The notes under the pieces: model-generated
Seen by the model: only the letters and a program-made list of their open reading frames with translations
What the model was told of the DNA's origin: nothing
Database searches by the model: none
Shown: piece after piece, positions 11,223-42,608 of the stretch
Layout of the letters: each line of letters opens with the position of its first letter
Position numbering within the stretch: the stretch's first letter is position 1
Sequence record: JN882298
Strand: one strand, 5' to 3'
DNA length: 42,608 bases
Origin: Escherichia phage phiKT
Position numbers and translations under genes: made by a program

Positions 11223-11942
11223 ATGTTAGTAATGCTCTCTGGCGCGATTGGCGCTGGCAAAGATACCTTCGGTGAGTTCCTGTACGACTCATTTGACAAG
11301 TTCGGCTACAACGTGGAAGTGGTGAAGTTTGCCGACCCCATTCGTGAAGCTGCATTTAAGCTCGGATTCAATCCAGATGACCGGGCAACCAAGGAAGTAC
11401 CTGCAATACGCCATTATAAACTCTCAGAACTTGATGAGGCCATTTTTACTACTCATACCTGCCTGACACCTTACGAGCGCCGAATGGTCGCTGTACGAGT
11501 TCACCAGAGATTAATTAACATCCGTAAGGAAAAGCACGATGGCATTTATAAACCTGTCGTCAGTACGCGGGAGTTTATGCAGGTGGTTGGCGGCACTGTC
11601 CGAGATGCAGATGTGGATTACTATATCAAACACATGTTATCCAATGTACCCGTTGGGCGAATTAACATCTGCACTGACTCTCGGTTCCTTAACGAGCAAA
11701 AAATCGGGGATTATTCAATCTACGTTGAGCGTCCAAACAACCCGCTGGCGGTTAATACTCTCGACGCCTCGGAAGCAGCACAAGCATCGCTCCGAGGGGC
11801 GGCGAAGAAAGTAATCCTGAACAACAGCACTCTGGATAATCTGGCAGAAATGGCAGACTATGTGGCTACAACACTAATTTCAAAAGGGTATTGTGATGAT
11901 GCAGTTAAAGAGTCAAGCGGAACTGGAATCCTTATCGAGTGA
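11223..11942 (+). CDS. P-loop kinase (dNMP/nucleotide kinase-like)
   Basis: Walker A (GAIGAGKDT) at the N-terminus; 239 aa; 3' end overlaps the RNAP start. Confidence 0.55.
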   Translation: MLVMLSGAIGAGKDTFGEFLYDSFDKFGYNVEVVKFADPIREAAFKLGFNPDDRATKEVPAIRHYKLSELDEAIFTTHTCLTPYERRMVAVRVHQRLINIRKEKHDGIYKPVVSTREFMQVVGGTVRDADVDYYIKHMLSNVPVGRINICTDSRFLNEQKIGDYSIYVERPNNPLAVNTLDASEAAQASLRGAAKKVILNNSTLDNLAEMADYVATTLISKGYCDDAVKESSGTGILIE

Positions 11943-14367
11943 ACGCGGCCTTGCCAAGCTGATGGCCGAGTGTGAGCAGGCTGAATCAGCGGGGCGTGCA
12001 TCCGGCGCGTTTTATGCCAAGCAGTTGTTAGAGCGTTTTGTTAACCGTATGGCCGAACGTATTGACCACGAGATGGCGAATCCGGGTGCTGGCCGCGCGA
12101 AAGCGCATAAGAAACTGGTCGCTGTGTTTGACTCAAAAGTCACTGCGTTTATTTCTGTATCAACCACATTGAATATGCTGATGGTCAACGAGCAGACACC
12201 GGGCACCAGCCTTAGTCGCGCCCTCGGCAATGCAATGTACAACGAACTGTTCTGCACCACGTTCGACGATGCCAACCCGGACCTGTTCCACACCATCTGC
12301 AAGGACTTGGATAAGCGCCAGAGCAAATCCAGCCGCCACCGCATGACTGTGCTGAAGAATCAGGCAGCGAAGAAGGGTATCGCGTGGGAGAACTGGACCG
12401 TCACCGAAATCCTTCAGGTTGGTGAGTGGTGTCTGGATAATCTGGTGTCAGTTGGCCTGTGCGAAACGCATACCGAGGTGTCTCGCGGTAAGGCGAAGAT
12501 GTACGTGGAACTGTCCGACGAGGCGCTGGGAATGATTGAGGATACCAAACGTCTGGTGTCCTTCTTCCGGCCCCAGCGCCTCCCGTTCGTAGAGAAGCCT
12601 CTGGACTGGACCGGGATTGTTGGTGGTGGCTACCATACTGCTCGTATGCAGAGTACGATGCCTCGTTGCATCAAAGCCAGCCCGACCCAGATGGATGTAC
12701 TCATAAAGCATCGTGACGACTACAAGGGTACGGTGGTGGCGTGCATTAACACTCTGCAATCGGTAGAGTGGCGTATCAACAAGCGTATTCTGGAAGTGCA
12801 GCAGCAGATGTTCCGTGGCTTTGAGCCGAAGAACAAGCCGGATGCGCTGGAGTGTCATAGCAAGGACGTTGAGGATTGGACAGAGGCAGATAAATCTCTA
12901 CACAGCCACTGGAAGAAGGAAATGGCTCGCTGGTACACAGAGCAGCGTGCAGAGCGTTATGCCGCTTCACGACATGCCTACACGTTGTCAGTGGCACGAG
13001 AGTTCGCTGACTACCCGCGTATCTGGTTCATGTACTTCGCTGACTGGCGGGGCCGTTACTACCCGGCCACCACAGGCATCTCGCCGCAGGGGACCGACAT
13101 CTCTAAATCCATGCTGGAGTTCGCCAATGGCAAGCCCATCTCTGACCCAATCGCAGAACAGTTCTTCTTCCTCCTTGGTTCAACTAAATTCGGATTCGAC
13201 AAAGGCTCTATATCCGAACGAGTTCAGTGGGTTCACGAGAATCACGAACTTATCATGGCGTGTGCCGACGAACCGCTACTTCATACTGATTTCTGGTACA
13301 GAGAGGCAGATAAGAAGACCCGTTACCAATTTCTGGCATGGTGTTTTGAATATGCTGAATACAAACGGTTCCCGGCTGGATTTGTATCACGACTTCCGGT
13401 ATCTCTTGATGGCACATGTAACGGCCTACAACACTATTCGGCGATGTTACGAGATTCGGTTGGTGCTAAAGCTACCAACTTGTTACCTGCTAACCGACCA
13501 AACGATATTTACGCGCAAGTCGCAGGCGTTGTCACCAACCTTCTTGAAAGCATGTCACCTGCTGACTTCCCGGCACTGACACGCGAATCTAAGCCTCTCA
13601 GCATCTATGAGGTGGATTTTTTCAGGAGGGGGTGGTTACACCACGGCATTAGCCGTAGCCTCGTTAAACGGTGCGTTATGACGTTACCTTACGGGTCCAA
13701 GAAGTTCAGCATGGGTCGCTTCATTAAGGGCGATTACATGCTGGATATTCACCCGGAAGAGTTCGACACCGACGACTACACCGACGCGGCGAACTTCCTT
13801 GGCGATATAGTCTGGAAGGCTATCGGGATGGTGGTAGAGAAGGCGGTCGGCGGCATGAGCTACTTTCAAGGCACCAGCCGAGCAATTACCCGCAAGAAAG
13901 ACGTTGAGGTCATCCAGTGGCCGAGCATGACCGGACTTCCAATTGTTCAGGATTATTGGAAGACAGAGTACGTACAGTTCCGCTCAGTACGTGGTGGTGG
14001 TGCTCGACTGAAGTGTCTGGTCGAAACGGACAAGATTGACAAGCTGGGACATGCCAACGGAATCGCACCCAACATTGTTCACAGTCTGGATGCAGCGCAC
14101 TTAACGTTCGTTACGCTGGCCGCAGCAAAGGCTGGCATTGACTCCTTCGCAATGATTCACGACGACTACGGAACCCACGCAGCCGACACAGCACTCCTGT
14201 TCAAGCTCATCCGTGAAGAGTTCGTCAAGATGTACGAGCAAGACCCTTTCACAATGATTGCTGAAGCTCTTGAAGCACAAGCAATATCCAAGTATGTTCC
14301 TGCCAGACCAGAGTTCGGCGACCTCGACTTACAGCAGGTCAATCACTCCGAATACTTCTTCCTGTAG
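11896..14367 (+). CDS. Single-subunit DNA-directed RNA polymerase (T7-like)
   Basis: Motifs DGTCNGLQHYSAM and HDDYGTH match T7 RNAP active-site motifs A/C; ~820 aa; followed by a terminator and a phage-promoter-like motif. Confidence 0.9.
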   Translation: MMQLKSQAELESLSSERGLAKLMAECEQAESAGRASGAFYAKQLLERFVNRMAERIDHEMANPGAGRAKAHKKLVAVFDSKVTAFISVSTTLNMLMVNEQTPGTSLSRALGNAMYNELFCTTFDDANPDLFHTICKDLDKRQSKSSRHRMTVLKNQAAKKGIAWENWTVTEILQVGEWCLDNLVSVGLCETHTEVSRGKAKMYVELSDEALGMIEDTKRLVSFFRPQRLPFVEKPLDWTGIVGGGYHTARMQSTMPRCIKASPTQMDVLIKHRDDYKGTVVACINTLQSVEWRINKRILEVQQQMFRGFEPKNKPDALECHSKDVEDWTEADKSLHSHWKKEMARWYTEQRAERYAASRHAYTLSVAREFADYPRIWFMYFADWRGRYYPATTGISPQGTDISKSMLEFANGKPISDPIAEQFFFLLGSTKFGFDKGSISERVQWVHENHELIMACADEPLLHTDFWYREADKKTRYQFLAWCFEYAEYKRFPAGFVSRLPVSLDGTCNGLQHYSAMLRDSVGAKATNLLPANRPNDIYAQVAGVVTNLLESMSPADFPALTRESKPLSIYEVDFFRRGWLHHGISRSLVKRCVMTLPYGSKKFSMGRFIKGDYMLDIHPEEFDTDDYTDAANFLGDIVWKAIGMVVEKAVGGMSYFQGTSRAITRKKDVEVIQWPSMTGLPIVQDYWKTEYVQFRSVRGGGARLKCLVETDKIDKLGHANGIAPNIVHSLDAAHLTFVTLAAAKAGIDSFAMIHDDYGTHAADTALLFKLIREEFVKMYEQDPFTMIAEALEAQAISKYVPARPEFGDLDLQQVNHSEYFFL

Positions 14368-14453: not shown

Positions 14454-14493
14454 AGCCTTGGCCTCTTTGGTCAGGGCTATTTTTTCTGTTTTT
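14454..14493 (+). terminator. Rho-independent terminator downstream of the RNAP gene
   Basis: ~10-bp stem (agccttggcc/ggtcagggct, one G-U and one mismatch) followed by a T-run (attttttctgttttt). Confidence 0.55.
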
Positions 14494-14533
14494 GGGTATT
14501 CGTTAAATATGGCTTGAAGCCTTGATATATGGG

Positions 14534-14560
14534 GTTTCCGCACATTATTTTAATAAGGGG
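14534..14560 (+). promoter_or_regulatory. Phage RNAP promoter-like motif, copy 1
   Basis: gtttccgcacattattttaataagggg; near-identical copy at 38018..38044; ends in a TATA-AGGG(AG) element like T7-type promoters. Confidence 0.5.
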
Positions 14561-14576
14561 TCTGGAGGGTGTTAAA

Positions 14577-14924
14577 ATGTTCCTTAAATTTTTACTTTGG
14601 TTAATTTCTAAGTTAAGCGAAAGCCAACTTAGTAAGGTAAGAGATTATTACCTGATTAGTGGTCCATACCGTAGTGAATTAGAAAGACTACATTCCCGGA
14701 TTAGTGAGTTAGAGGGTGCTCTTTCCTCCTCAGAGTCTGTACCAGAACCTGTTACAGAAATATTCAGTAGAATGAACTATGAGGTGTACGAATACTTTGA
14801 GCGTACAGTAAGTAATACTTCTGTAGCTAGTTCTACTACTGATTTAGAAGCTGGGTTTAAATTAGGTGTCCAGCATGTTCTCGCCAAGTTGAGGAATGGG
14901 TATGTCACACCGCGAAGTCTCTGA
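14577..14924 (+). CDS. Hypothetical protein, AT-rich accessory gene (N-terminal hydrophobic segment)
   Basis: Track ORF 14529..14924; ATG at 14577 with GGAGGGTG RBS; by eye much lower GC and different codon choice (tta, agt, aga) than neighbours. Confidence 0.5.
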   Translation: MFLKFLLWLISKLSESQLSKVRDYYLISGPYRSELERLHSRISELEGALSSSESVPEPVTEIFSRMNYEVYEYFERTVSNTSVASSTTDLEAGFKLGVQHVLAKLRNGYVTPRSL

Positions 14925-31132: not shown

Positions 31133-33916
31133 ATGGCTATTACGTTTTATGCTACCAACAACTTCACTGGTGATGGTACTACCGTAAACTGGAATATTAA
31201 CTTCGCAGACGGTTACATCGACACCACCGACGTGAAGGCGCGGTATCTGGATAATACCGGGAGCTACGTTGACATCGCTATTTCAAGCGTGGCAGGAAAC
31301 GTAGTAACCATTTCCCCGGCTGTGGCGGACGGTCAGGAGTTCCAAATCTATCGTGATACAGAGAAGCGGTTCCCGCTGGTGGACTTCTCTGACGGTGCAA
31401 TCCTCAACGAGACTAACCTTGACACGCTGGCTACCCAGGCTGTGATGGTATCCGCTGAGGCATTCGACCAATCTAACAACGGTGTACGTATTGCTGGTGA
31501 TTCCTTGACTATCGCGCAAGGTATCGACGCCAAGGCACAGCTGGCTCTGGACAACTCCGAGGCTGCTGTAGCTACAGCGAACGGTATCGACGGTAAAGCG
31601 CAGACGGCATTGAATACCGCCGCCGCCGCTGTCGCCACGGCTAATGCTGCCACATCTACTGCTGCTGGTGCTGTATCTACGGCCAACACCGCACTGTCTA
31701 CTGCCAACGATGCCGCCGATGACGCAGCTACCGCTGTCACTACCGCTAACGCCGCTGTGACTACGGCCAATGCTGCAACCACTACGGCCAACGCCGCTAG
31801 TGCTGCCGCCTCTGCTGCAACGACTACTGCGAACAATGCTGCAAACGACGCTGCTACTGCTGTGTCTACTGCGAATACGGCCTTGTCTACTGCGAACACC
31901 GCATCTACCAACGCCTCTACCGCTGTGTCCACGGCTAACGCCGCTAAGGCTACTGCTGAGGGTATCGAGGCTAAAGCGGATTCTGCTTTGGCAGCTTCTG
32001 CTAACGCTGTGACCACAGCTAACGCAGCTGAGGCTACGGCTAATGCTATCGACGGTAAGGCTACGGACGCACTAAACACTGCTGATGCCGCTGAGGCTAC
32101 GGCTAATACTGCCGCTGCTACTGCGAGTTCGGCTGCTGCTGACGCCAGTACCGCTTTGAGCACAGTTACTGCTGCTGACACAAAGGCACAGACTGCTCTG
32201 GATAATATCGCGTCTCTGGATGCGGCCACCATGAAGAAAGCAGCTAACCTGTCTGATATTGCGGATAAGGCGGCTGCATGGCTTAACGTCCGTCCAATTG
32301 GCTCCACGCCATTGGCAGGCGACCCGGTAGGTGACTACGATGCTGTTACTAAGCGTTGGGTAGAGAACCTGATTAACACAGGTACTGTTGGTCCGACCAT
32401 GAATGGTGTGATGAACTACGGCGTTGGTGATTTTCATCTTCGTGATAGTCGCGCATACATTCAGCCGTATGAGGTTGTATCCGACGGTCAATTACTGAAC
32501 CGCGCTGATTGGCCTGAACTTTGGTCTTATGCGCAAATGTTGTCGCCCATCACCGATGCAGACTGGCTTGCTGACCCGCAAAAGCGCGGCAAGTATTCAC
32601 TAGGTAACGGCGCAACAACATTCCGCGTACCGGACCGCAACGGGGTTCAGGCAGGTTCAATAGCTGCATTGTTTGGCCGTGGTGATGGCGGGGTGTCATC
32701 TAGTGATGGGACAATTCTTGACAGTGCTGCACCAAACATTACAGGCTCATTTGGCCGATTGGTTTACGCGTCAACAGGCACTATTTATGAAGGAAACACA
32801 GGGACAGGTGCCTTCTCTGCTTTCTCACCACAAGCAAAATATAAAAAGATGTCAGACCTATCTTCAATTGATGCTCAGGCAGCGGAATATCCTTCTGGGT
32901 ATGAATTCTTCGCATCAAATTCAAGCCCGGTCTATGGTAGAGGTTCAACAGAAGTCCGACCCAAAGCATTCACTGGTGTTTGGGTGATTCGCGCATCTGG
33001 TGGATTTGTTGCTGCGAATACCCTGTGGAGTGTTATTAATGGCGATGCTACTAAACCCGCTAACAACACAAGTGTTAACGGTGGAGAGATTCAGTCTGAA
33101 TACCGTATTGGTACTCAGGTTGAAGGTAAAACATCTCTGCGATTTGTCGGTACTATCGGTCAGGCTTATGCTGCGCGCCTGAACGTATCAAATAACTCAA
33201 ATACTAATGCCTTTATCTACGATTTCGATGAGTATGGTCGGGTTAACTTCGGCAAACCGGGTGGTGTGATCAAATCTGGTGATATTACTCTGGATATGGC
33301 ATCCAACGGCGATTTCTACGTTACCACAACCCGTTTACGTGTAGAACACCCTACCTCTGGTGGTCAGACTATGGGGATATCCACTCAAGGTGGGGCCAAC
33401 CGTGGTGCTGATCAGGGGTGGTTTGAGCACTGGGGTAACTCCTATGGCGGTGGTTCTGACAAATCTCGTGCAACTGTTGTTGAACTTAAGATTGGTACTG
33501 GTTATGCGTGGTACAGTCAGAAACTAGCGAGTGGCGTATATGAAACCAGATTTGCAAGTGCAATCTATGCAACTGCATTCACTCAAAACTCTGATGAACG
33601 TATCAAGGAAAACATCGAGCGTATTAGCGATCCGTTGGAAAAGATGAAGCAAATTAAAGGTGTTTCATGGAATTTTAAAACGGTTGGTAATGCAAAAGGT
33701 TACGGCTTTATCGCACAGGATGTGGAAAGGGTACTCCCTGAAGCTGTAAGTGTCGGAGGTGGTGAACTGGAACTGACTGACGGTACTAAGGTATCCGATG
33801 TTAAATCGGTAAACACCAGCGGTGTGGCTGCTGCACTCCACCACGAAGCTATCCTAGCTTTGATGGATAAGGTTGAGGCTCTGGAAGCACGCATTGCAGA
33901 ACTAACTTCTCAGTAA
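31133..33916 (+). CDS. Tail fiber protein (T7 gp17-like anchor, Ala/Thr heptad stalk, collar-type receptor-binding region, C-terminal intramolecular chaperone)
   Basis: Track ORF 31121..33916; ATG at 31133 with GGAG RBS; N-terminus (QIYRDTEKRFPLVDFSDGAILNE) resembles the T7 gp17 anchor; tail-collar-like motif (GNGATTFRVPDRNG); last 108 aa (SDERIKENIERISD...) resemble the S74 chaperone domain. Confidence 0.8.
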   Translation: MAITFYATNNFTGDGTTVNWNINFADGYIDTTDVKARYLDNTGSYVDIAISSVAGNVVTISPAVADGQEFQIYRDTEKRFPLVDFSDGAILNETNLDTLATQAVMVSAEAFDQSNNGVRIAGDSLTIAQGIDAKAQLALDNSEAAVATANGIDGKAQTALNTAAAAVATANAATSTAAGAVSTANTALSTANDAADDAATAVTTANAAVTTANAATTTANAASAAASAATTTANNAANDAATAVSTANTALSTANTASTNASTAVSTANAAKATAEGIEAKADSALAASANAVTTANAAEATANAIDGKATDALNTADAAEATANTAAATASSAAADASTALSTVTAADTKAQTALDNIASLDAATMKKAANLSDIADKAAAWLNVRPIGSTPLAGDPVGDYDAVTKRWVENLINTGTVGPTMNGVMNYGVGDFHLRDSRAYIQPYEVVSDGQLLNRADWPELWSYAQMLSPITDADWLADPQKRGKYSLGNGATTFRVPDRNGVQAGSIAALFGRGDGGVSSSDGTILDSAAPNITGSFGRLVYASTGTIYEGNTGTGAFSAFSPQAKYKKMSDLSSIDAQAAEYPSGYEFFASNSSPVYGRGSTEVRPKAFTGVWVIRASGGFVAANTLWSVINGDATKPANNTSVNGGEIQSEYRIGTQVEGKTSLRFVGTIGQAYAARLNVSNNSNTNAFIYDFDEYGRVNFGKPGGVIKSGDITLDMASNGDFYVTTTRLRVEHPTSGGQTMGISTQGGANRGADQGWFEHWGNSYGGGSDKSRATVVELKIGTGYAWYSQKLASGVYETRFASAIYATAFTQNSDERIKENIERISDPLEKMKQIKGVSWNFKTVGNAKGYGFIAQDVERVLPEAVSVGGGELELTDGTKVSDVKSVNTSGVAAALHHEAILALMDKVEALEARIAELTSQ
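31510..32280 (+). repeat. Heptad-coded Ala/Thr repeat tract inside the tail fiber gene
   Basis: Protein shows more than 13 consecutive heptads of the form [ST]TAN.A. plus longer repeated units (ATANGIDGKAQTALNTA-like), from imperfect 21-bp DNA repeats. Confidence 0.7.
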
Positions 33917-33925
33917 GGAGAGCAG

Positions 33926-34297
33926 ATGTCCGACTTCGAAGAAGAGGATGTCACACAGGAAGAGAACGGGTCTTCGGACCTGTTCAAACCCTTAGAGACT
34001 ATCCCCGGCGCTACCGCCAACCGGGACCAGATGGCAGAGCTACACCAGCTTATCTGCATCGCCCTGTCCGCACGTATCCGGGCAGGTATCTGGTCCTCCG
34101 GCGATATTGCCGCAGCTACAAAGTTCCTGAAGGACAACAACGTCACTGCCGATGTTGGCGACAACAAGGCACTCCAGAAACTCCGCGATGAGATGGAGAC
34201 TAAGCAGAAGGCACGTCGTGAAGAACGGACGTATCTCTCTGAGCAGGAACTCGTCAAACTCGCAACGGAAGAACTGAATAACGAGATATGGCACTAA
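33926..34297 (+). CDS. Terminase small subunit
   Basis: 123 aa acidic protein immediately upstream of, and overlapping, the terminase large subunit. Confidence 0.55.
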   Translation: MSDFEEEDVTQEENGSSDLFKPLETIPGATANRDQMAELHQLICIALSARIRAGIWSSGDIAAATKFLKDNNVTADVGDNKALQKLRDEMETKQKARREERTYLSEQELVKLATEELNNEIWH

Positions 34298-36093
34298 GAG
34301 AATCAGCAGAAAGAGAAGAACAACGGCTACTTGAACTCGCAGCACTGCGGGACATGTACCCCACGTTCCTACCGTTTCTGATTGATTTCATGGTGATGCT
34401 CGGATTCTTCGTCACACCGGTACAGAAGCTCATTGCTCAATTCCTTGAGTACGGGCCTCTGTATCGGATGGTGCAGGCCCAGCGTGGTCAGGCGAAGACT
34501 ACCATCACAGCCGCATATGCAATCTGGCGACTTATCCACGATACCAACCTTGCCGTGTTGATCGTCTCGGCAGGGGGCAAGCAGGCGAACGAGATTTCAA
34601 CTCTCATCGTCCGCTCGTTCAAAACGTGGGATAGGCTGGCCTGCATGTGTCCTGACGCCTCTATGGGCGACCGTGAGTCAGTCGAAGCATTCGACGTTCA
34701 CTACAACTTAAAGAGGCTGAATAAATCTCCATCCGTGGCCTGTACTGGTATCACGGGTAACTTGCAGGGTAAACGTGCGGGTCTGCTTATCGCGGACGAC
34801 GTTGAGTCCCAGAAGAACTCCCTGACTGCGGTCATGCGTGAGAACCTCCTGAACCTGACTCGTGACTTTACCTCAATATGCTCCACCGGGGATATTATCT
34901 ACCTCGGTACACCACAGACTACAGAATCAATTTATAACACCTTGCCGGGGCGTGGCTTTACTGTCCGCATCTGGCCGGGACGTTTCCCTAACGCAGAACA
35001 GGTGGAAGCCTACGGCGACCAGCTATGCCCTGTCTTTAGGATGAAGATTGCTTCACGCCCTGACCTGACTACAGGCTACGGGCCGGATGGGCTTCAGGGT
35101 GCTCCGGTTGACCCGGTAATCCTTGGTGAAGCCTTCCTGAACAAGAAAGAGATTGACCAAGGGACTGCATACTTCCAGTTGCAGCACATGCTTCAGACGC
35201 GCCTGATGGATGCTATGCGCAAGCCATTACACGCAGAGAAGCTGATTGTGGCCCAACTGCCGAAGCGGGACGGTCTGTTCCCTATCACCATTACGCGAGA
35301 AATCTCTGTACAAGCCTACATGCGCCGAAACGTCCTGAGCAAGCCTCTGGTATTCGGTGTGCCCGGTAGCGTGTCTAAGGACGTCGCTACGCTTCAGGGC
35401 GTATGCTTCTACATCGACCCCGCTGGTGGTGGTAAGAACGCGGATGAAACTGCATTCGCTTGTACCGGGTTCCTGAACTCCAATATCTTCTTGCTGGATT
35501 GGGGCGGCTTACCGGGCGGATATGCCCCGGATGTTATGACCGCTCTCGCCCAACGTGTGTTTGAAGTGCGGCCCAATGTTGTCAAAATCGAAAAGAACTT
35601 CGGTTACGGCGTTCCGCGAAGTATGGTTGCCGTACCTCTGGGCCATTTTGATAAAGCTGGTGTTAACCGTCCCGGCGTAGAGGACGATATGGTACACGGC
35701 CAGAAGGAGAAGCGAATCATTGATACGCTTGAGCCTGTAATGGGTCGTGGCTCGCTCATTGTTGACGAGCGTCTCATCAAGGAAGACGAAGACCAGACCA
35801 TGCGGTACAGCGCACAAATGCGTGTGACGTACTCCGGGTTCCTACAGATGGTTAATATCTCCTACGACAAAGATGCGTTGGTGCATGATGACCGACTGGA
35901 TGCTTTGGAAGGAGCGGTTCGTCATTGGCAGGATTGGCTGGCCAAGAACCAAGAGAAGGCCATTCAGGCTCAACGGAAACGTGAGTTCGAAGAGTGGCAG
36001 AAAGACCCGATGATGAAGAAGCGTTGTCAGTCCGTGAAGGAATACAATGCTGGTCGTCGTGGTAAAACCATGTTTGATAAGAGAAAACGCTAA
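34288..36093 (+). CDS. Terminase large subunit
   Basis: 601 aa; ATPase P-loop-like segment (QRGQAKTT) and C-terminal nuclease-type acidic motifs; position as T7 gp19. Confidence 0.85.
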   Translation: MALRESAEREEQRLLELAALRDMYPTFLPFLIDFMVMLGFFVTPVQKLIAQFLEYGPLYRMVQAQRGQAKTTITAAYAIWRLIHDTNLAVLIVSAGGKQANEISTLIVRSFKTWDRLACMCPDASMGDRESVEAFDVHYNLKRLNKSPSVACTGITGNLQGKRAGLLIADDVESQKNSLTAVMRENLLNLTRDFTSICSTGDIIYLGTPQTTESIYNTLPGRGFTVRIWPGRFPNAEQVEAYGDQLCPVFRMKIASRPDLTTGYGPDGLQGAPVDPVILGEAFLNKKEIDQGTAYFQLQHMLQTRLMDAMRKPLHAEKLIVAQLPKRDGLFPITITREISVQAYMRRNVLSKPLVFGVPGSVSKDVATLQGVCFYIDPAGGGKNADETAFACTGFLNSNIFLLDWGGLPGGYAPDVMTALAQRVFEVRPNVVKIEKNFGYGVPRSMVAVPLGHFDKAGVNRPGVEDDMVHGQKEKRIIDTLEPVMGRGSLIVDERLIKEDEDQTMRYSAQMRVTYSGFLQMVNISYDKDALVHDDRLDALEGAVRHWQDWLAKNQEKAIQAQRKREFEEWQKDPMMKKRCQSVKEYNAGRRGKTMFDKRKR

Positions 36094-36329
36094 TGACTAT
36101 TGCTGCACAACTCCCAGACCCGAAGCTCGACGTTAAGGGCGACCGACTGCGTTTCCTGTTGGCCGCTTGTATCAGCGAGTGTAATATCCAAGCAGACAAC
36201 GGTGCGTATGATAAAGGCACCAGCTTCAAAGCCCTGCTTACTGCCGCTGCTGCACTCGTGAAGGTAGCTCCGGTAGAACCTGAAGACCCGGAAGACCCTG
36301 AAGACCCTGAAGACCCTGAAAACCCGTAA
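36093..36329 (+). CDS. Small hypothetical protein with C-terminal PEDPEDPEDPEDPENP repeat
   Basis: TAATG overlap with the terminase stop; C-terminus encoded by five tandem 9-bp units. Confidence 0.4.
   Translation: MTIAAQLPDPKLDVKGDRLRFLLAACISECNIQADNGAYDKGTSFKALLTAAAALVKVAPVEPEDPEDPEDPEDPENP
36283..36327. repeat. 5 x 9-bp tandem repeat (gaagaccc[g/t])
   Basis: Tandem units read directly in the sequence; encodes the (PED)n tail of the 36093..36329 ORF. Confidence 0.85.
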
Positions 36330-36372
36330 GAATAATACAATTGGCCAAGGACGGCTATTGAGGAACCTATTT

Positions 36373-37281: not shown

Positions 37282-37665
37282 ATGTTCGAAGGCACCGGGA
37301 ACTACGGTTCCCTTGTGACCACCCTCCTTACGGGAGCAGTGGCGGCTCAAACCTCTTATCAGGTATCCCGTATAGTCACACATGATTCTCTGTTATTAGT
37401 TGGCATCCTCTGCGTCATCGGTATCGTGGTAGGTCTGGGCCATGCTCTCTCAAGCAAGTCCCCTCTCCCATTCCGTCGTATCGTAGGCAAGGTGCTTATG
37501 TCTACTGGCGTGGCCGTTACAGCCGCTGCCGTCTATTACTTCAAACCAAGTACCGACCCGTTAGTCGTCATTGCCATTGGCGCTGGGTTAAGCGTCATGG
37601 GTTCTGGCTGGCTGGAAGAGTTCGTCCGGAACAGAACAGGAACCAAGAAGGATGATGGTAGTTAA
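37282..37665 (+). CDS. Holin-like multi-pass membrane protein
   Basis: 127 aa with about three hydrophobic segments and a charged C-terminal tail; adjacent to the endolysin. Confidence 0.5.
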   Translation: MFEGTGNYGSLVTTLLTGAVAAQTSYQVSRIVTHDSLLLVGILCVIGIVVGLGHALSSKSPLPFRRIVGKVLMSTGVAVTAAAVYYFKPSTDPLVVIAIGAGLSVMGSGWLEEFVRNRTGTKKDDGS

Positions 37666-37720
37666 AAGCTCTCAGAAGCTCTACAACGCTCTCAAGGACG
37701 AGAGCAATACGATGTTACCA

Positions 37721-37795
37721 CCTGACCCTGATTAGATGCCTGATGACTTCATTAGCACGTTTTAAGTTGATTCCTGATTAGATGATTAGCTAGTC
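37721..37795. repeat. Direct repeats of cctgattagatg and related attag units
   Basis: cctgattagatg at ~37727..37738 and ~37773..37784, with additional attag copies between. Confidence 0.6.
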
Positions 37796-37810
37796 CACAG
37801 AGGGCAGTCC

Positions 37811-37854
37811 TAAAATTTGATATAATTTTGTGAGGGGGCAGTCCAACACAAATG
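37811..37854. repeat. Direct repeat (a)gggcagtcc flanking an AT-rich palindrome
   Basis: agggcagtcc at ~37811..37820 and gggcagtcc at ~37846..37854 flank taaaatttgatataatttt. Confidence 0.5.
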
Positions 37855-37886
37855 AGGTCGCGTTTCCCCCGTAGGCCCGGCCTTCT

Positions 37887-37958
37887 GGATGGCTGAATGG
37901 CTGGATGGATGGATGGCTGGACGGCTAGACGTTTAGACGGCTAAATGGCCAAATGACC
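37887..37958. repeat. Tandem array of nine imperfect 8-bp units (consensus ggatggct)
   Basis: ggatggct gaatggct ggatggat ggatggct ggacggct agacgttt agacggct aaatggcc aaatgacc read in strict 8-nt register. Confidence 0.8.
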
Positions 37959-38017
37959 GTAAAAAAGGGCCGTGTGCACTGATAGGGTCAATCGGGCTGT
38001 AGGTCGCGCCAACCGGA

Positions 38018-38044
38018 GTTTCCGCACATTACTTTATAAGGGAG
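38018..38044 (+). promoter_or_regulatory. Phage RNAP promoter-like motif, copy 2
   Basis: gtttccgcacattactttataagggag; matches 14534..14560 except for one substitution and one indel. Confidence 0.5.
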
Positions 38045-38134
38045 CTTGTAAGGTGTCTGGCGGCGATCCGTCTGACGACGGGAGAAGGGAAGAGACGTGG
38101 GGTATCTATCTTTTTGTGATTAGTGTTAGTTGTG

Positions 38135-38165
38135 TATCTATCTATCTATGTATGTATGTATATCC
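38135..38165. repeat. Tetranucleotide microsatellite (tatc)3(tatg)3
   Basis: tatctatctatctatgtatgtatgtata read directly. Confidence 0.8.
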
Positions 38166-38209
38166 GGCTATCCTTTATCTGCGCTGCGACGGGCCAGCTA
38201 TCGCTTTCC

Positions 38210-38239
38210 TTGTCTTCGCTACGATAAGGAAGCTATAAT
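38210..38239 (+). promoter_or_regulatory. Sigma70-type promoter candidate driving the 38279 mini-operon
   Basis: -35 TTGTCT, 18-nt spacer, -10 TATAAT (perfect); ~40 nt upstream of a strong-RBS ATG. Confidence 0.5.
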
Positions 38240-38278
38240 AGGGATTGTATTATTGCTCTTTAATAATGAGGTGAGATT

Positions 38279-38482
38279 ATGGCTATACGTAATTGGATGG
38301 CGGTTATGGCTATTGTGGATAGTGTGGGGATTGAAGCGGCGTTAGCCTTGCCATACGTTCCGCCGGATTCTAACACTATGCCGGGCCGTGCCGAACGTTA
38401 TGCAATTGAGTACAACATACAACGGGGGAAGTATGGCGAGACCATGCCGGAAGTATCGACGTCGTGCACTCATCGGGATTGA
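38279..38482 (+). CDS. Hypothetical small protein (first gene of the left-end mini-operon)
   Basis: GAGGTGA RBS before the ATG; 67 aa; atypical codon usage; overlaps the next ORF. Confidence 0.35.
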   Translation: MAIRNWMAVMAIVDSVGIEAALALPYVPPDSNTMPGRAERYAIEYNIQRGKYGETMPEVSTSCTHRD

Positions 38483-42282: not shown

Positions 42283-42608
42283 ATGACAAGCATCAATCCG
42301 GTAGACCTGACCACTTTAGGCGCACGAGTAACCGACCCGGCACAGTTGACCGAAGGCCGCTGGTATGCGGTACGCGTTAACTGTAGAGGCTATATCCCAC
42401 TGGTACACGCCAAATACTTGGGTAGGAAAGGTCGGTATTCACATGCGTTTGAGGTGTGCGATGAGGATCATCTCGCGTTAAAGCGTTCTCTGGGCCTCGC
42501 CAAGCGCATCCACCGCGACAACGGTAGTATCCACTCGGGGAAGATTGATGGCGGCGGTATCTGCGAGATATTCAAGTTTAAGCAGGTGGTGGATGGTCCC
42601 GTAAGCAC
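42283..42608 (+). CDS. Early hypothetical protein, 3'-truncated at the window edge
   Basis: ATG at 42283, open to the last base; frame is continuous with 2..427 if the sequence is circular. Confidence 0.45.
   Translation, partial: MTSINPVDLTTLGARVTDPAQLTEGRWYAVRVNCRGYIPLVHAKYLGRKGRYSHAFEVCDEDHLALKRSLGLAKRIHRDNGSIHSGKIDGGGICEIFKFKQVVDGPVS

Follow-up and report, generated by a model that had tools for sequence, protein, structure and literature searches.

The gene-free stretch at positions 37666–38278 of the coliphage phiKT (Ermolevavirus, Autographiviridae) is very probably the concatemer junction of a T7-type phage, with its direct terminal repeat (TR) collapsed to a single copy. All coordinates given here refer to the window, that is, to the whole 42,608-nt stretch of phiKT DNA that was analyzed, and they coincide with the numbering of NC_019520.1 (bioRxiv 10.1101/515445). 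All the long ORFs of this genome are on the + strand, and the stretch extends from the stop codon of the holin gene (37665) to the ATG of the first early ORF (38279). Such a location, between the end of the late genes and the start of the early genes in a genome whose genes are all on one strand, is that of the junction in T7 and T3 (Studiervirinae; TRs of 160 bp and 231 bp, respectively). The features of the stretch and of its borders are, from left to right:

37282–37665, + strand: holin gene (phiKT gene 29; PHROG 175 holin, E = 4e-27), the last late gene and left limit of the gap.
37670–37711, + strand: conserved post-gene block with the hairpin GCTCTC-AAGGAC-GAGAGC (37688–37705) and no U-run, from comparison of relatives.
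37727–37789, + strand: ATTAG-type short repeats of the right-end unique region, dispensable and variable.
37799–37841, + strand: left-junction signature, GAGGGCAGTCC, AT-box TAAAATTTGATATAATTTTG (37811–37830) and GTGAGGGGGCAG, from comparison with SP6, phiKMV and T7.
37842–38103, + strand: predicted direct terminal repeat, a single collapsed copy of 262 bp, colinear with PGT2 1–260 (= PGT2 42427–42686).
37863–37882, + strand: C-rich box TTTCCCCCGTAGGCCCGGCC, 22–23 nt inside the left end, conserved in relatives.
37886–37957, + strand: array of nine in-phase 8-bp units (TRRAYGGC), a polymorphic cassette within the TR, from a sequence scan.
37986–38045, + strand: conserved block GGTCAATCGGGCTGTAGGTCGCGCCAACC, then the promoter-like motif GGAGTTTCCGCACATTACTTTATAAGGGAGC (38015–38045), from sequence comparison.
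38104–38115, + strand: ATCTATCTTTTT, directly right of the repeat, invariant in 16 of the 16 junctions that span the site, with both flanks diverging.
38135–38161, + strand: microsatellite (TATC)3(TATG)3 of the left-end unique leader, hypervariable.
38167–38242, + strand: conserved leader block and sigma-70-type early promoter (TTGTCT, 18 nt, TATAAT; 38210–38239), with 10 of 12 consensus positions.
38279–38482, + strand: first early ORF (67 aa), 84% identical to PGT2 g00001, right limit of the gap.

The initial annotation had listed a series of repeat elements in this region, all of which were found in their places. Exact direct repeats of at least 10 nt cover 90 nt of the stretch, as against 3.2 ± 7.8 nt (maximum 44) in 1000 dinucleotide shuffles, and its lag-8 (54/72) and lag-4 (22/24) scores are the highest among all the 613-nt windows of the genome and were reached by none of the shuffles. 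The repeat density of the stretch thus exceeds chance. It is also non-coding by all the tests run: two ORFs inside the gap (37972–38238 and 38130–38345) have no PHROG match, the gene-free region has no Rfam match, and the corresponding region of the PGT2 record carries no gene annotation. With no PHROG or Rfam matches, an explanation of the stretch by coding sequence or by an RNA gene was rejected, as was a host origin of the repeat or of the array (0 matches among 5,426 complete E. coli genomes). The first early ORF on its right border belongs to no PHROG family, and the exact sequence of its protein was not found on record.

The position of the TR is predicted by homology with the Ermolevavirus PGT2 (NC_047890), which is 97% identical to the window across the 3.7 kb ending at the junction. 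The 260-bp direct terminal repeat of the PGT2 record maps to window 37842–38103, and the two elements are the same, colinear throughout, with the same boundaries and promoter-like motif and with an array of nine units that differs by one substitution; the PGT2 leader to the right of the repeat is different, with TATCT(T)n in three copies and also (TATC)5. The PGT2 ends are themselves based on conserved sequence and RFLP data, rather than on run-off sequencing; the PGT2 paper (PMC5773715) relates the ends of both PGT2 and phiKT to the same conserved sequences and to RFLP data. The virion DNA is therefore predicted to begin at T37842 (TCCAACAC...) and to end at T38103 (...GTGGGGT), with an uncertainty of ~4 nt at the latter. 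The segment first flagged as the genome terminus, the 605 bp from 37666 to 38270, does contain the TR; but it is only 262 bp of that segment, and both the 12-mer repeat and the microsatellite are outside it.

Seventeen relatives were recovered in addition to PGT2, and 16 genomes allowed a measurement of the TR length, with inferred values from 185 to 290 bp. The boundaries of the repeat are near-invariant among these phages; its interior and its flanks vary. One contig, from the relative L080, reads ...CTACGTTTGAG and then passes directly into the Illumina adapter AGATCGGAAGAGCGTCGTG, 4 nt before the predicted right end. No adapter-capped or exactly terminating contig was found when these were sought at the left end; the L109 contig begins inside the repeat and that of L110 spans the junction. 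A 17-mer spanning the left cut (GCAGTCCAACACAAATG) gave only chance matches in a metagenome scan (33 of 33, all in unrelated context), and among viral contigs it was found only in PGT2 and one relative. The PGT2 repeat, the shared boundary elements and the L080 adapter lend support, by homology, to the original suggestion that the physical ends and packaging signals are located here.

The second part of that suggestion, according to which the window represents a full but permuted genome, was borne out. The deposited phiKT sequence is a circular permutation in which the TR has been collapsed to a single copy: one uninterrupted ORF, homologous to PGT2 gp11, runs across the join from the end of the window to its start, and a search for a second copy of the TR region found just one within the window. 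Short-read assemblies often collapse terminal repeats and place them in the middle of a contig. The PGT2 record, on the other hand, is presented end-to-end with both repeats, whereas in phiKT the single copy is unannotated. Given the order of tail, 262-bp repeat and leader, the virion DNA should read 37842...42608 and then 1...38103, a molecule of ~42,870 bp that carries the TR at each end.

The left boundary is made up of GGCAGTCC, AT-box TTTGATAT and GTGAGGGGGCAG/TCCAAC (the slash marks the edge of the repeat), with TTCCCCCGTAGGCCC following at +23. The direct repeat AGrGGGCAGTCC (37799–37810 and 37833–37844) flanks the AT-rich imperfect palindrome of the AT-box, and this combination of a direct repeat and an AT palindrome, already noticed in the initial annotation, is the conserved left junction. 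Its core, GCGAGGGG(N3-4)/TCCAAC, hardly varies among 14 Ermolevavirus-like junctions; that of L102 is an exception with no AT-box. Recorded phage ends have a similar architecture: CAAAATTTTGATATAGGCGTGTGTCAGC/TCTC in SP6, GGGTCCAATTTTGATATCGTCGTGTGAGAACCC/TCCC in phiKMV and, in T7, GGGTCC, an AT-rich stretch and TGAGTGACTA/TCTC. The AT-box and the spacing of phiKT recur in SP6 and phiKMV; the C-rich box recurs in T7 and phiKMV. As in T7 and T3, an AT-rich stretch and a TGAG-like element precede the repeat, which opens with TC, and a C-rich box (TTCCCCCrTAGG) lies ~23 nt inside the left end. The sequence 37799–37841 is therefore a candidate for the terminase recognition and cleavage region, on the right-end side of the cut. 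When the left junction was folded as DNA it was no better than shuffles (z = +0.6). In contrast to T7, the predictions give phiKT no stable hairpin close to its left end or at its C-rich box.

The closest left junction is that of the Pseudomonas phage phiKMV (Krylovirinae), which has GGGTCC, AATTTTGATAT, a TGAG element and a cut before TCC. AT-box and C-rich box are spaced by 50 nt in phiKMV and by 51 nt in phiKT, and the 15-nt TTCCCCCGTAGGCCC is identical in the two phages at nearly equal offsets (24 and 23, respectively); T7 has TTCCCCCATAGGGGG at offset 24. The RNA polymerase gene of phiKMV also has the late position seen in phiKT. There are also differences: the phiKMV TR (414 bp) is longer, the 8-bp array is absent and the right boundary, GGCTAG/CCTTGCC, has no ATCT-type signal.

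At the right boundary of phiKT the sequence is GGGT/ATCTATCTTTTT, in which ATCTATC is followed by T5. The corresponding sequence in T7 and T3 is CCCT/ATCTGTT, with the ATCTGTT heptamer at exactly this position, and in SP6 the heptamer spans the boundary. By its position, ATCTATCTTTTT is a candidate class II-like pause or termination signal, a candidate determinant of the right cleavage, or both. The phiKT and T7 heptamers differ at 2 of 7 positions, and class II termination by the T7 polymerase is reportedly abolished by any base change in the heptamer. There are no ATCTGTT sequences on the phiKT + strand, an absence that is not significant because the expectation is only ~2.8, and ATCTATC is not depleted in the genome.

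The genome encodes both a terminase of T7 type and a single-subunit RNA polymerase, again as in T7 and T3:

11893–14367, + strand: single-subunit RNA polymerase gene (PF00940, E = 2.8e-88; PF14700).
14531–14572, + strand: second copy of the promoter-like motif, preceded by the RNA polymerase gene and by a terminator-like hairpin that has a T-run.
33926–34297, + strand: small terminase gene, T7-type (PF11123 DNA_Packaging_2, E = 3.6e-17).
34288–36093, + strand: large terminase gene, T7-type (PF22530 Terminase-T7 RNaseH-like, E = 2.6e-27).

The large terminase has homologues in 2687 phage records, and the two phiKT subunits are expected, by analogy, to cut at the junction. A T7-type terminase and fixed, conserved boundary sequences are not those of a headful (pac) mechanism. 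The polymerase gene of phiKT ends the DNA-metabolism block, whereas that of T7 is among the early genes.

The motif GGAGTTTCCGCACATTACTTTATAAGGGAGC is probably a promoter for the phage RNA polymerase, directed rightward and with a presumed start near G38040. The 22-nt core of the motif recurs exactly once in the genome, at 14534 (0 expected by chance), ~30 nt upstream of the first late ORF (ATG at 14578), and PGT2 keeps the motif at both sites; the phiKT polymerase presumably reads both. The motif within the TR is kept by most of the relatives and has three further sequence variants among them, and all the complete relatives have variant A; in the repeats of L092 and L094 no recognizable promoter-like motif was found. 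For variants B, C and D (the types of L082, L098 and L006) no contig links the TR site to the late-gene site, where covariation was sought, and a scan with variant C gave chance matches in coding DNA. The initial annotation had pointed to the promoters phiOL and phiOR next to the terminal repeats of T7. A promoter-like motif is indeed present, but it is inside the repeat, ~64 nt upstream of the ATCT signal, and not beside it like phiOL and phiOR; neither 37666–37841 nor 38104–38278 contains a copy, so that T7-style flanking promoters (phiOL to the right, phiOR to the left) are not seen in phiKT. Both types of junction nonetheless combine short-repeat arrays and a phage promoter with host early promoters downstream. 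In phiKT the putative host sigma-70 early promoter is that at 38210–38239, which, like the leader block around it, is conserved in relatives.

These elements suggest how the junction may function. A right-end unique tail (37666–37841) would comprise the hairpin block, the ATTAG repeats and the left-junction signature (GGCAGTCC, AT-box, GTGAGGGGGCAG); it would be followed by the TR (37842–38103, 262 bp) and by a left-end leader (38104–38278) with ATCTATCTTTTT, the hypervariable microsatellite and the host-type early promoter. By analogy with T7, replication would produce head-to-tail concatemers with a single repeat between genome units, the T7-type terminase would recognize the junction and cut at ...GCAG/TCCAAC and near ...GGGT/ATCT, and DNA synthesis would duplicate the repeat to give two copies per packaged genome. 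The phage RNA polymerase probably initiates inside the repeat near 38040 and would meet ATCTATCTTTTT ~64 nt downstream, at the position of the T7 pause signal, thereby marking the right boundary. From the same promoter the early region would also be transcribed again, and replication may be primed.

Several components of the junction are much more variable than its boundaries. In the right-end tail, a 12-mer (CCTGATTAGATG) is present in two copies (37727–37738 and 37773–37784); the ATTAG repeats to which it belongs occur in the relatives L078, L079, L082 and L084, and unrelated sequence takes their place in L080, L088, L092, L098 and L102. The microsatellite is replaced by (TATC)6 in L079, (CT)13 in L088, (CTAT)5 in L098 and a CT-rich sequence in L006. 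The comparison of repeat copy number that had been called for at the outset was made on these relatives: the boundaries are kept, but the 8-bp array is variable, with 8 units in L088, 9 in L110, 11 in L101, 12 in L100 and 9 in PGT2, as in phiKT, and in 10 of the 16 scorable relatives, some of them with near-identical flanks, it is missing and replaced by unrelated, non-repetitive sequence. The array therefore cannot be an essential packaging signal; more generally, array, ATTAG repeats and microsatellite tolerate replacement and are not core packaging signals. The hairpin block is near-identical in most of the relatives shown, where it follows either the holin gene or an extra 148-aa ORF (L098 and L099 are without it). 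It is a candidate signal for the 3′ ends of late transcripts, for their processing or for their weak termination; the post-holin tail folds as RNA no better than its shuffles (z = -0.1), and for this reason we can only infer such a role.

The array is the only run of at least four TRRAYGGC-type units on either strand of the window, and it is not an assembly artefact, a possibility that was rejected because PGT2, which was sequenced independently, has all nine units and differs in them by one substitution. T7 has dispersed CCTAAAG heptamers inside and beside its TR, whereas phiKT has strict tandem 8-mers inside the TR and ATTAG repeats to its left, so that the phiKT array and the T7 SRL/SRR are analogous at most. 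A relation of the units to Chi sites (GCTGGATGG against GCTGGTGG) was rejected because they have an extra base and because the jumbo-phage units are less Chi-like. Arrays resembling that of phiKT are found in the Rak2-like jumbo myoviruses (Asteriusvirus, Mimasvirus and relatives), which are unrelated to phiKT and have another packaging apparatus. Their direct TRs (21–22 kb) carry, in a non-coding leader near the left end, a single array of 9–13 heterogeneous 8-bp units (CTRRAYGG), including an irregular GACGTTTrGAyGGCTAAAyGG. It too is within the TR and in the same orientation to the left end, at 700–890 nt from the start of the record as compared to 45 nt in phiKT, and it is the only part that the two kinds of junction share. 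The arrays are ~80% identical (~77–83% over 65–79 nt), and a stretch of 22 nt is exactly the same in phage CBB; the CBB paper does not mention the array, the function of which is undescribed.

We are evenly divided as to whether the array and the microsatellites are without function, simple products of replication slippage in junction spacers that are free to vary, the jumbo-phage likeness then being a convergence of low-complexity sequence. The variation among close relatives in array presence and copy number (8–12) and in TR length agrees with this, as does a microsatellite motif that differs in nearly every relative. So does the occurrence of perfect (GGCTGGAT)n and (GGCTGAAT)n runs in unrelated viral contigs; such microsatellites were all that a viral-contig scan with three consecutive array units produced, and it was uninformative. 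The array units, however, differ among themselves and do not form a perfect slippage run; the irregular element GACGTTTRGAYGGCTAAAYGG stands at the end of six of the six Ermolevavirus-type arrays and occurs in those of two jumbo-phage genera in the same orientation to the left end; and among 50,697 phage records searched, 38 of the 38 non-PGT2 matches listed (60 records in total) are jumbo phages of at least 319 kb. A more speculative interpretation, to which we give a rather low probability, is that the array is a horizontally exchanged, terminus-proximal protein-binding cassette common to the TRs of some Ermolevavirus and Rak2-like phages.

It is improbable, if somewhat less foreign to the data than the alternative discussed last, that the region serves mainly as a replication origin, with the array as iterons, an AT-rich unwinding element and a phage promoter that primes synthesis. 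Short repeats in tandem do occur here together with an AT-rich box and a promoter-like motif, and the two functions are compatible, as the T7 phiOL promoter doubles as a secondary origin. But an origin that depends on the array is unlikely, because so many relatives, including some with near-identical flanks, lack it; the AT-box is at a fixed distance from the cut in SP6 and phiKMV, and thus it fits a packaging signal better; and no initiator gene is evident beside the region. That the stretch might only control transcription, as an ordinary intergenic region with a late terminator and early promoters, the ends being elsewhere or packaging being headful, has in its favor the conserved hairpin after the last late gene and the good sigma-70 promoter before the first early gene, but it is hardly credible: the terminase is T7-type, both boundary signatures match recorded ends of T7, T3, SP6 or phiKMV, the PGT2 repeat maps here in agreement with the RFLP data, and the L080 contig is adapter-capped at the predicted right end.

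If the stretch is the concatemer junction, as we believe, the phiKT reference should be made to start at window 37842 and be given a second copy of the 262-bp repeat. The repeat as such is ordinary for the family, and its counterpart had already been reported in the sister phage PGT2. Its borders would provide portable signatures for Ermolevavirus-like assemblies in which the repeat has collapsed: the AT-box, GCGAGGGG(N3-4)/TCCAAC and then TTCCCCCRTAGG at the left end, and T/ATCTATCTTTTT at the right end. An ATCT-type signal at the right edge of the TR is common to T7, T3, SP6 and Ermolevavirus, and the promoter-like motif 64 nt upstream of it would make phiKT a compact template for relating polymerase pausing to the packaging cut outside T7. 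The sole unexpected item is the polymorphic array with its likeness to the TRs of jumbo phages, and it is a modest lead. Were the array an exchanged cassette, it would act in some step common to linear genomes with TRs, for example in shielding or handling the leading end as it enters or in recognizing ends for packaging; selection would then act on it as an accessory trait, which some of the near-identical phiKT-like phages have and others lack.

The region 37666-38270 of phiKT is very probably a standard T7-like concatemer junction. It lies in a gene-free stretch that begins at the stop codon of the last late gene, the holin gene (37282-37665, PHROG 175), and ends at the first early ATG at 38279; no credible gene was found between these limits, where the two internal ORFs had no PHROG match and an Rfam search returned nothing, and the corresponding stretch of the sister phage PGT2 has no annotation in its record. 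All five elements listed in the initial annotation were found in the sequence:

37727 and 37773, two copies of the 12-mer CCTGATTAGATG
37799 and 37833, two copies of AGrGGGCAGTCC, either side of an AT-rich box (37811-37830)
37886-37957, nine 8-bp units, in phase
38015-38045, promoter-like motif
38135-38161, microsatellite (TATC)3(TATG)3

The density of repeats is far above chance: exact direct repeats of at least 10 nt cover 90 nt of the stretch, versus 3.2 ± 7.8 nt in 1000 dinucleotide shuffles. For both lag-8 and lag-4 periodicity it has the highest score in the genome, and the nine-unit array is the sole such run on either strand of the window. Elsewhere, coding tandem repeats occur at 31596-32187 (21- and 42-nt periods, in a 931-aa, Ala/Thr/Asn-rich tail-fibre-like ORF) and at 36263-36332 (9-nt period, about six times, PEDPEDPED-like, in a 78-aa ORF after the terminase gene).

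PGT2 (Ermolevavirus, Autographiviridae) is the only close database relative, with 97% identity across 3.7 kb ending in the region; the lysis-cassette coordinates agree with the phiKT NC_019520.1 numbering in bioRxiv 10.1101/515445, which identifies the window with phiKT in its deposited form. One ORF, homologous to PGT2 gp11, continues from the end of the window into its start, and no second copy of any part of the region exists elsewhere in the window. Hence the window is, as the initial annotation had proposed, a permuted genome; it is circularly permuted, with every segment present once. Compared with PGT2 gp11, this homologue (42283-42608 plus 1-430) carries 81 additional residues, inserted in frame. 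T7-type terminase genes are present for both the small (PF11123) and the large subunit (PF22530, with homologues in 2687 phage records), together with a gene for a single-subunit RNA polymerase (PF00940). The genome also contains the E. coli Chi octamer GCTGGTGG seven times, a count that none of 100 shuffles attained (1.7 ± 1.2 expected); six copies are on the + strand (1797, 19013, 21660, 29871, 31375, 35422) and one on the - strand (7895), and Chi in the + orientation acts against RecBCD coming in from the right genome end.

In the PGT2 record, which runs from one end of the genome to the other, the first and the last 260 bp are identical, and this direct terminal repeat (TR) maps onto window 37842-38103 (262 bp). 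Since the placement of the ends in the PGT2 paper was partly its authors' inference, we tested the boundaries independently by stacking both junctions against those of T7, T3, SP6 and phiKMV, the reference ends being the ends of their records (boundary marked by a slash):

Left, T7: GGGTCC-TTTAAAATATACCATAAAAATC-TGAGTGACTA/TCTCACAG...TTCCCCCATAGGGGG
Left, SP6: CAAAATTTTGATATAGGCGTGTGTCAGC/TCTCTCGG
Left, phiKMV: GGGTCC-AATTTTGATATCGTCGTG-TGAGAACCC/TCCCGACT...TTCCCCCGTAGGCCC
Left, window: GGCAGTCC-TAAAATTTGATATAATTTTG-TGAGGGGGCAG/TCCAACAC...TTCCCCCGTAGGCCC
Right, T7 and T3: GTGTCCCT/ATCTGTT
Right, SP6: GGGCTA/TCTGTT
Right, window: GTGGGGT/ATCTATCTTTTT

The AT-rich box and the C-rich box inside the left end of the TR are 50 nt apart in phiKMV and 51 nt apart in phiKT; at the right junction, phiKMV has no ATCT-type element, unlike T7, T3, SP6 and phiKT. 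What the initial annotation described as a direct repeat around an AT-rich palindrome is therefore, from the stack with T7, SP6 and phiKMV, the left-junction signature, which several subfamilies have in common. Within the AT-rich box, 37818-37826 holds a perfect extended -10 element (TGATATAAT) directed into the TR; many relatives retain a TATAAT-like hexamer there, though not all of them the TGn part. The T7 concatemer junction has been reported as an extended-TGn promoter for the E. coli polymerase (2026 preprint 10.64898/2026.02.12.705533).

By way of homologues of the holin and of the first early protein, 17 further phiKT-like junction loci were recovered from public assemblies, and one more from IMG/VR. 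Fourteen stacked junctions show conservation of the left core GCGAGGGG(N3-4)/TCCAAC and of the C-rich box. Sixteen junctions extend across the 12-mer ATCTATCTTTTT, and it is the same in every one of them, amid diverging flanks; the inferred TR length is 185-290 bp. One relative, L102, has an HNH-endonuclease-like insertion beside the junction and lacks the AT-rich box, which is therefore not absolutely required. The inserted ORF (588-1010; ENA ERZ27336792, NODE_184) lies between holin and TR, in place of the box and the ATTAG repeats, and looks like an insertion of the homing-endonuclease type right beside the packaging cut site. Most phiKT-like relatives (L078-L097; e.g., L078 3371-3817) also have an extra 148-aa ORF of no assigned function that follows the holin gene, with an overlap at its end, and which phiKT and PGT2 lack; a conserved hairpin block comes after whichever gene is last.

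A single observation bears on the physical end. The relative contig L080 (Logan, SRR17497126) ends in GAGAGCTACGTTTGAG followed by AGATCGGAAGAGCGTCGTG, an Illumina adapter, where its closest homologue reads CTACGCTTGAGCGGT/ATCT; the adapter cap thus marks a DNA end, abundant enough to assemble, that is 4 nt away from the right end as predicted. Either trimming of an overhang when the library was made, or a boundary 4 nt to the left of the predicted one, could account for the offset. In another relative, L090 (ENA ERZ27235415 k119_653), the TR interior is joined, after GGTGTCTGG, to the reverse complement of the sequence that starts contig L082; this could mean a chimeric assembly or a molecule that was rearranged.

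Three other elements vary among relatives. Comparison of copy number between isolates, suggested at the outset, showed that the 8-bp array varies from 8 to 12 units (phiKT, PGT2 and L110, 9; L088, 8; L101, 11; L100, 12) or is absent. The ten relatives that lack it include L080, whose flanks are near-identical to those of the array-bearing L088, and have non-repetitive sequence in its position (some 80 bp long in the nearest relatives). The ATTAG repeats, including the duplicated 12-mer, are swapped for unrelated sequence in several relatives, and the microsatellite right of the TR varies in almost every one ((TATC)n, (TATG)n, (CT)n, (CTAT)n). These three elements were prominent in the initial annotation, but because they occupy replaceable segments, they cannot be the essential packaging signals; the initial reading of the region as the terminus was right in substance.

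The 42.6-kb sequence contains exactly two copies of the motif GTTTCCGCACATTAyTTTAwwA, versus 0 expected, and both are conserved in PGT2. One precedes the first late ORF by about 30 nt and comes after both the RNA polymerase gene and a terminator-like hairpin that has a T-run; the other is inside the TR. The TR has the same motif in most relatives, with three further variants in others and no such motif in two. The 3' part of the motif (TATAAGGGAG) resembles TATAGGGAGA, with which the T7 promoter ends, and on copy number, position and this resemblance we regard it as a putative promoter. At 14456-14497, between the polymerase gene and the late motif, the strong hairpin with its T-run (GCCTTGGCCTCTTTGGTCAGGGCTATTTTTTCTGTTTTT) cleanly separates middle from late transcription units.

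A sensitive search of 50,697 phage records with the region matched PGT2 and 58 others. Among the matches listed, all 38 non-PGT2 records are jumbo phages of at least 319 kb, including the Rak2-like PBECO4, 121Q, GAP32 and CBB, and in each of these the matching part is the 8-bp array, over 65-79 nt at 77-83% identity. The array lies 706-889 nt from the record start in at least eight records with a match near the start, and inside the TR in both jumbo records with an annotated TR (n=2). Like phiKT at 37886-37957, the Rak2-like myoviruses have a single array, some 0.7-0.9 kb from the left end of TRs of 21-22 kb (819-890 in vB_Ec-M-J, the only one in its first 24 kb; about 700-800 in CBB, whose paper does not mention it). 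The units form one family (CTRRAYGG), and the irregular element GACGTTTrGAyGGCTAAAyGG, which terminates all six Ermolevavirus-type arrays, also occurs, in the same orientation, in arrays of two jumbo-phage genera. Rak2-like hosts comprise Escherichia, Salmonella, Pectobacterium, Cronobacter, Serratia, Erwinia, Xanthomonas and Aeromonas; nothing similar was found in 5,426 complete E. coli genomes. The array may be shared by horizontal exchange of a small cassette, or the likeness may be a convergence of low-complexity DNA.

What the analysis shows is the anatomy, the pattern of conservation and the presence of T7-type enzymes; by analogy with T7, concatemers would carry one TR per junction, terminase would cut at both of its edges, and the TR would be doubled by DNA synthesis, as stated in general terms in PMC10438801. 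A polymerase starting near 38040 would meet ATCTATCTTTTT after about 64 nt. Pausing at the T7 ATCTGTT signal has been linked to concatemer processing, and the strict conservation of the phiKT 12-mer fits a pause signal, a cleavage determinant, or both. As the T7 polymerase requires the exact ATCTGTT heptamer, it is a hypothesis, at even odds or slightly below, that the phiKT enzyme recognises ATCTATC. The PGT2 authors had already placed the junction for the genus; to this we add the exact coordinates of the TR and its conserved boundary signatures, a promoter-like motif within it, upstream of an invariant ATCT-type signal, and a polymorphic array with its likeness to those of jumbo phages.
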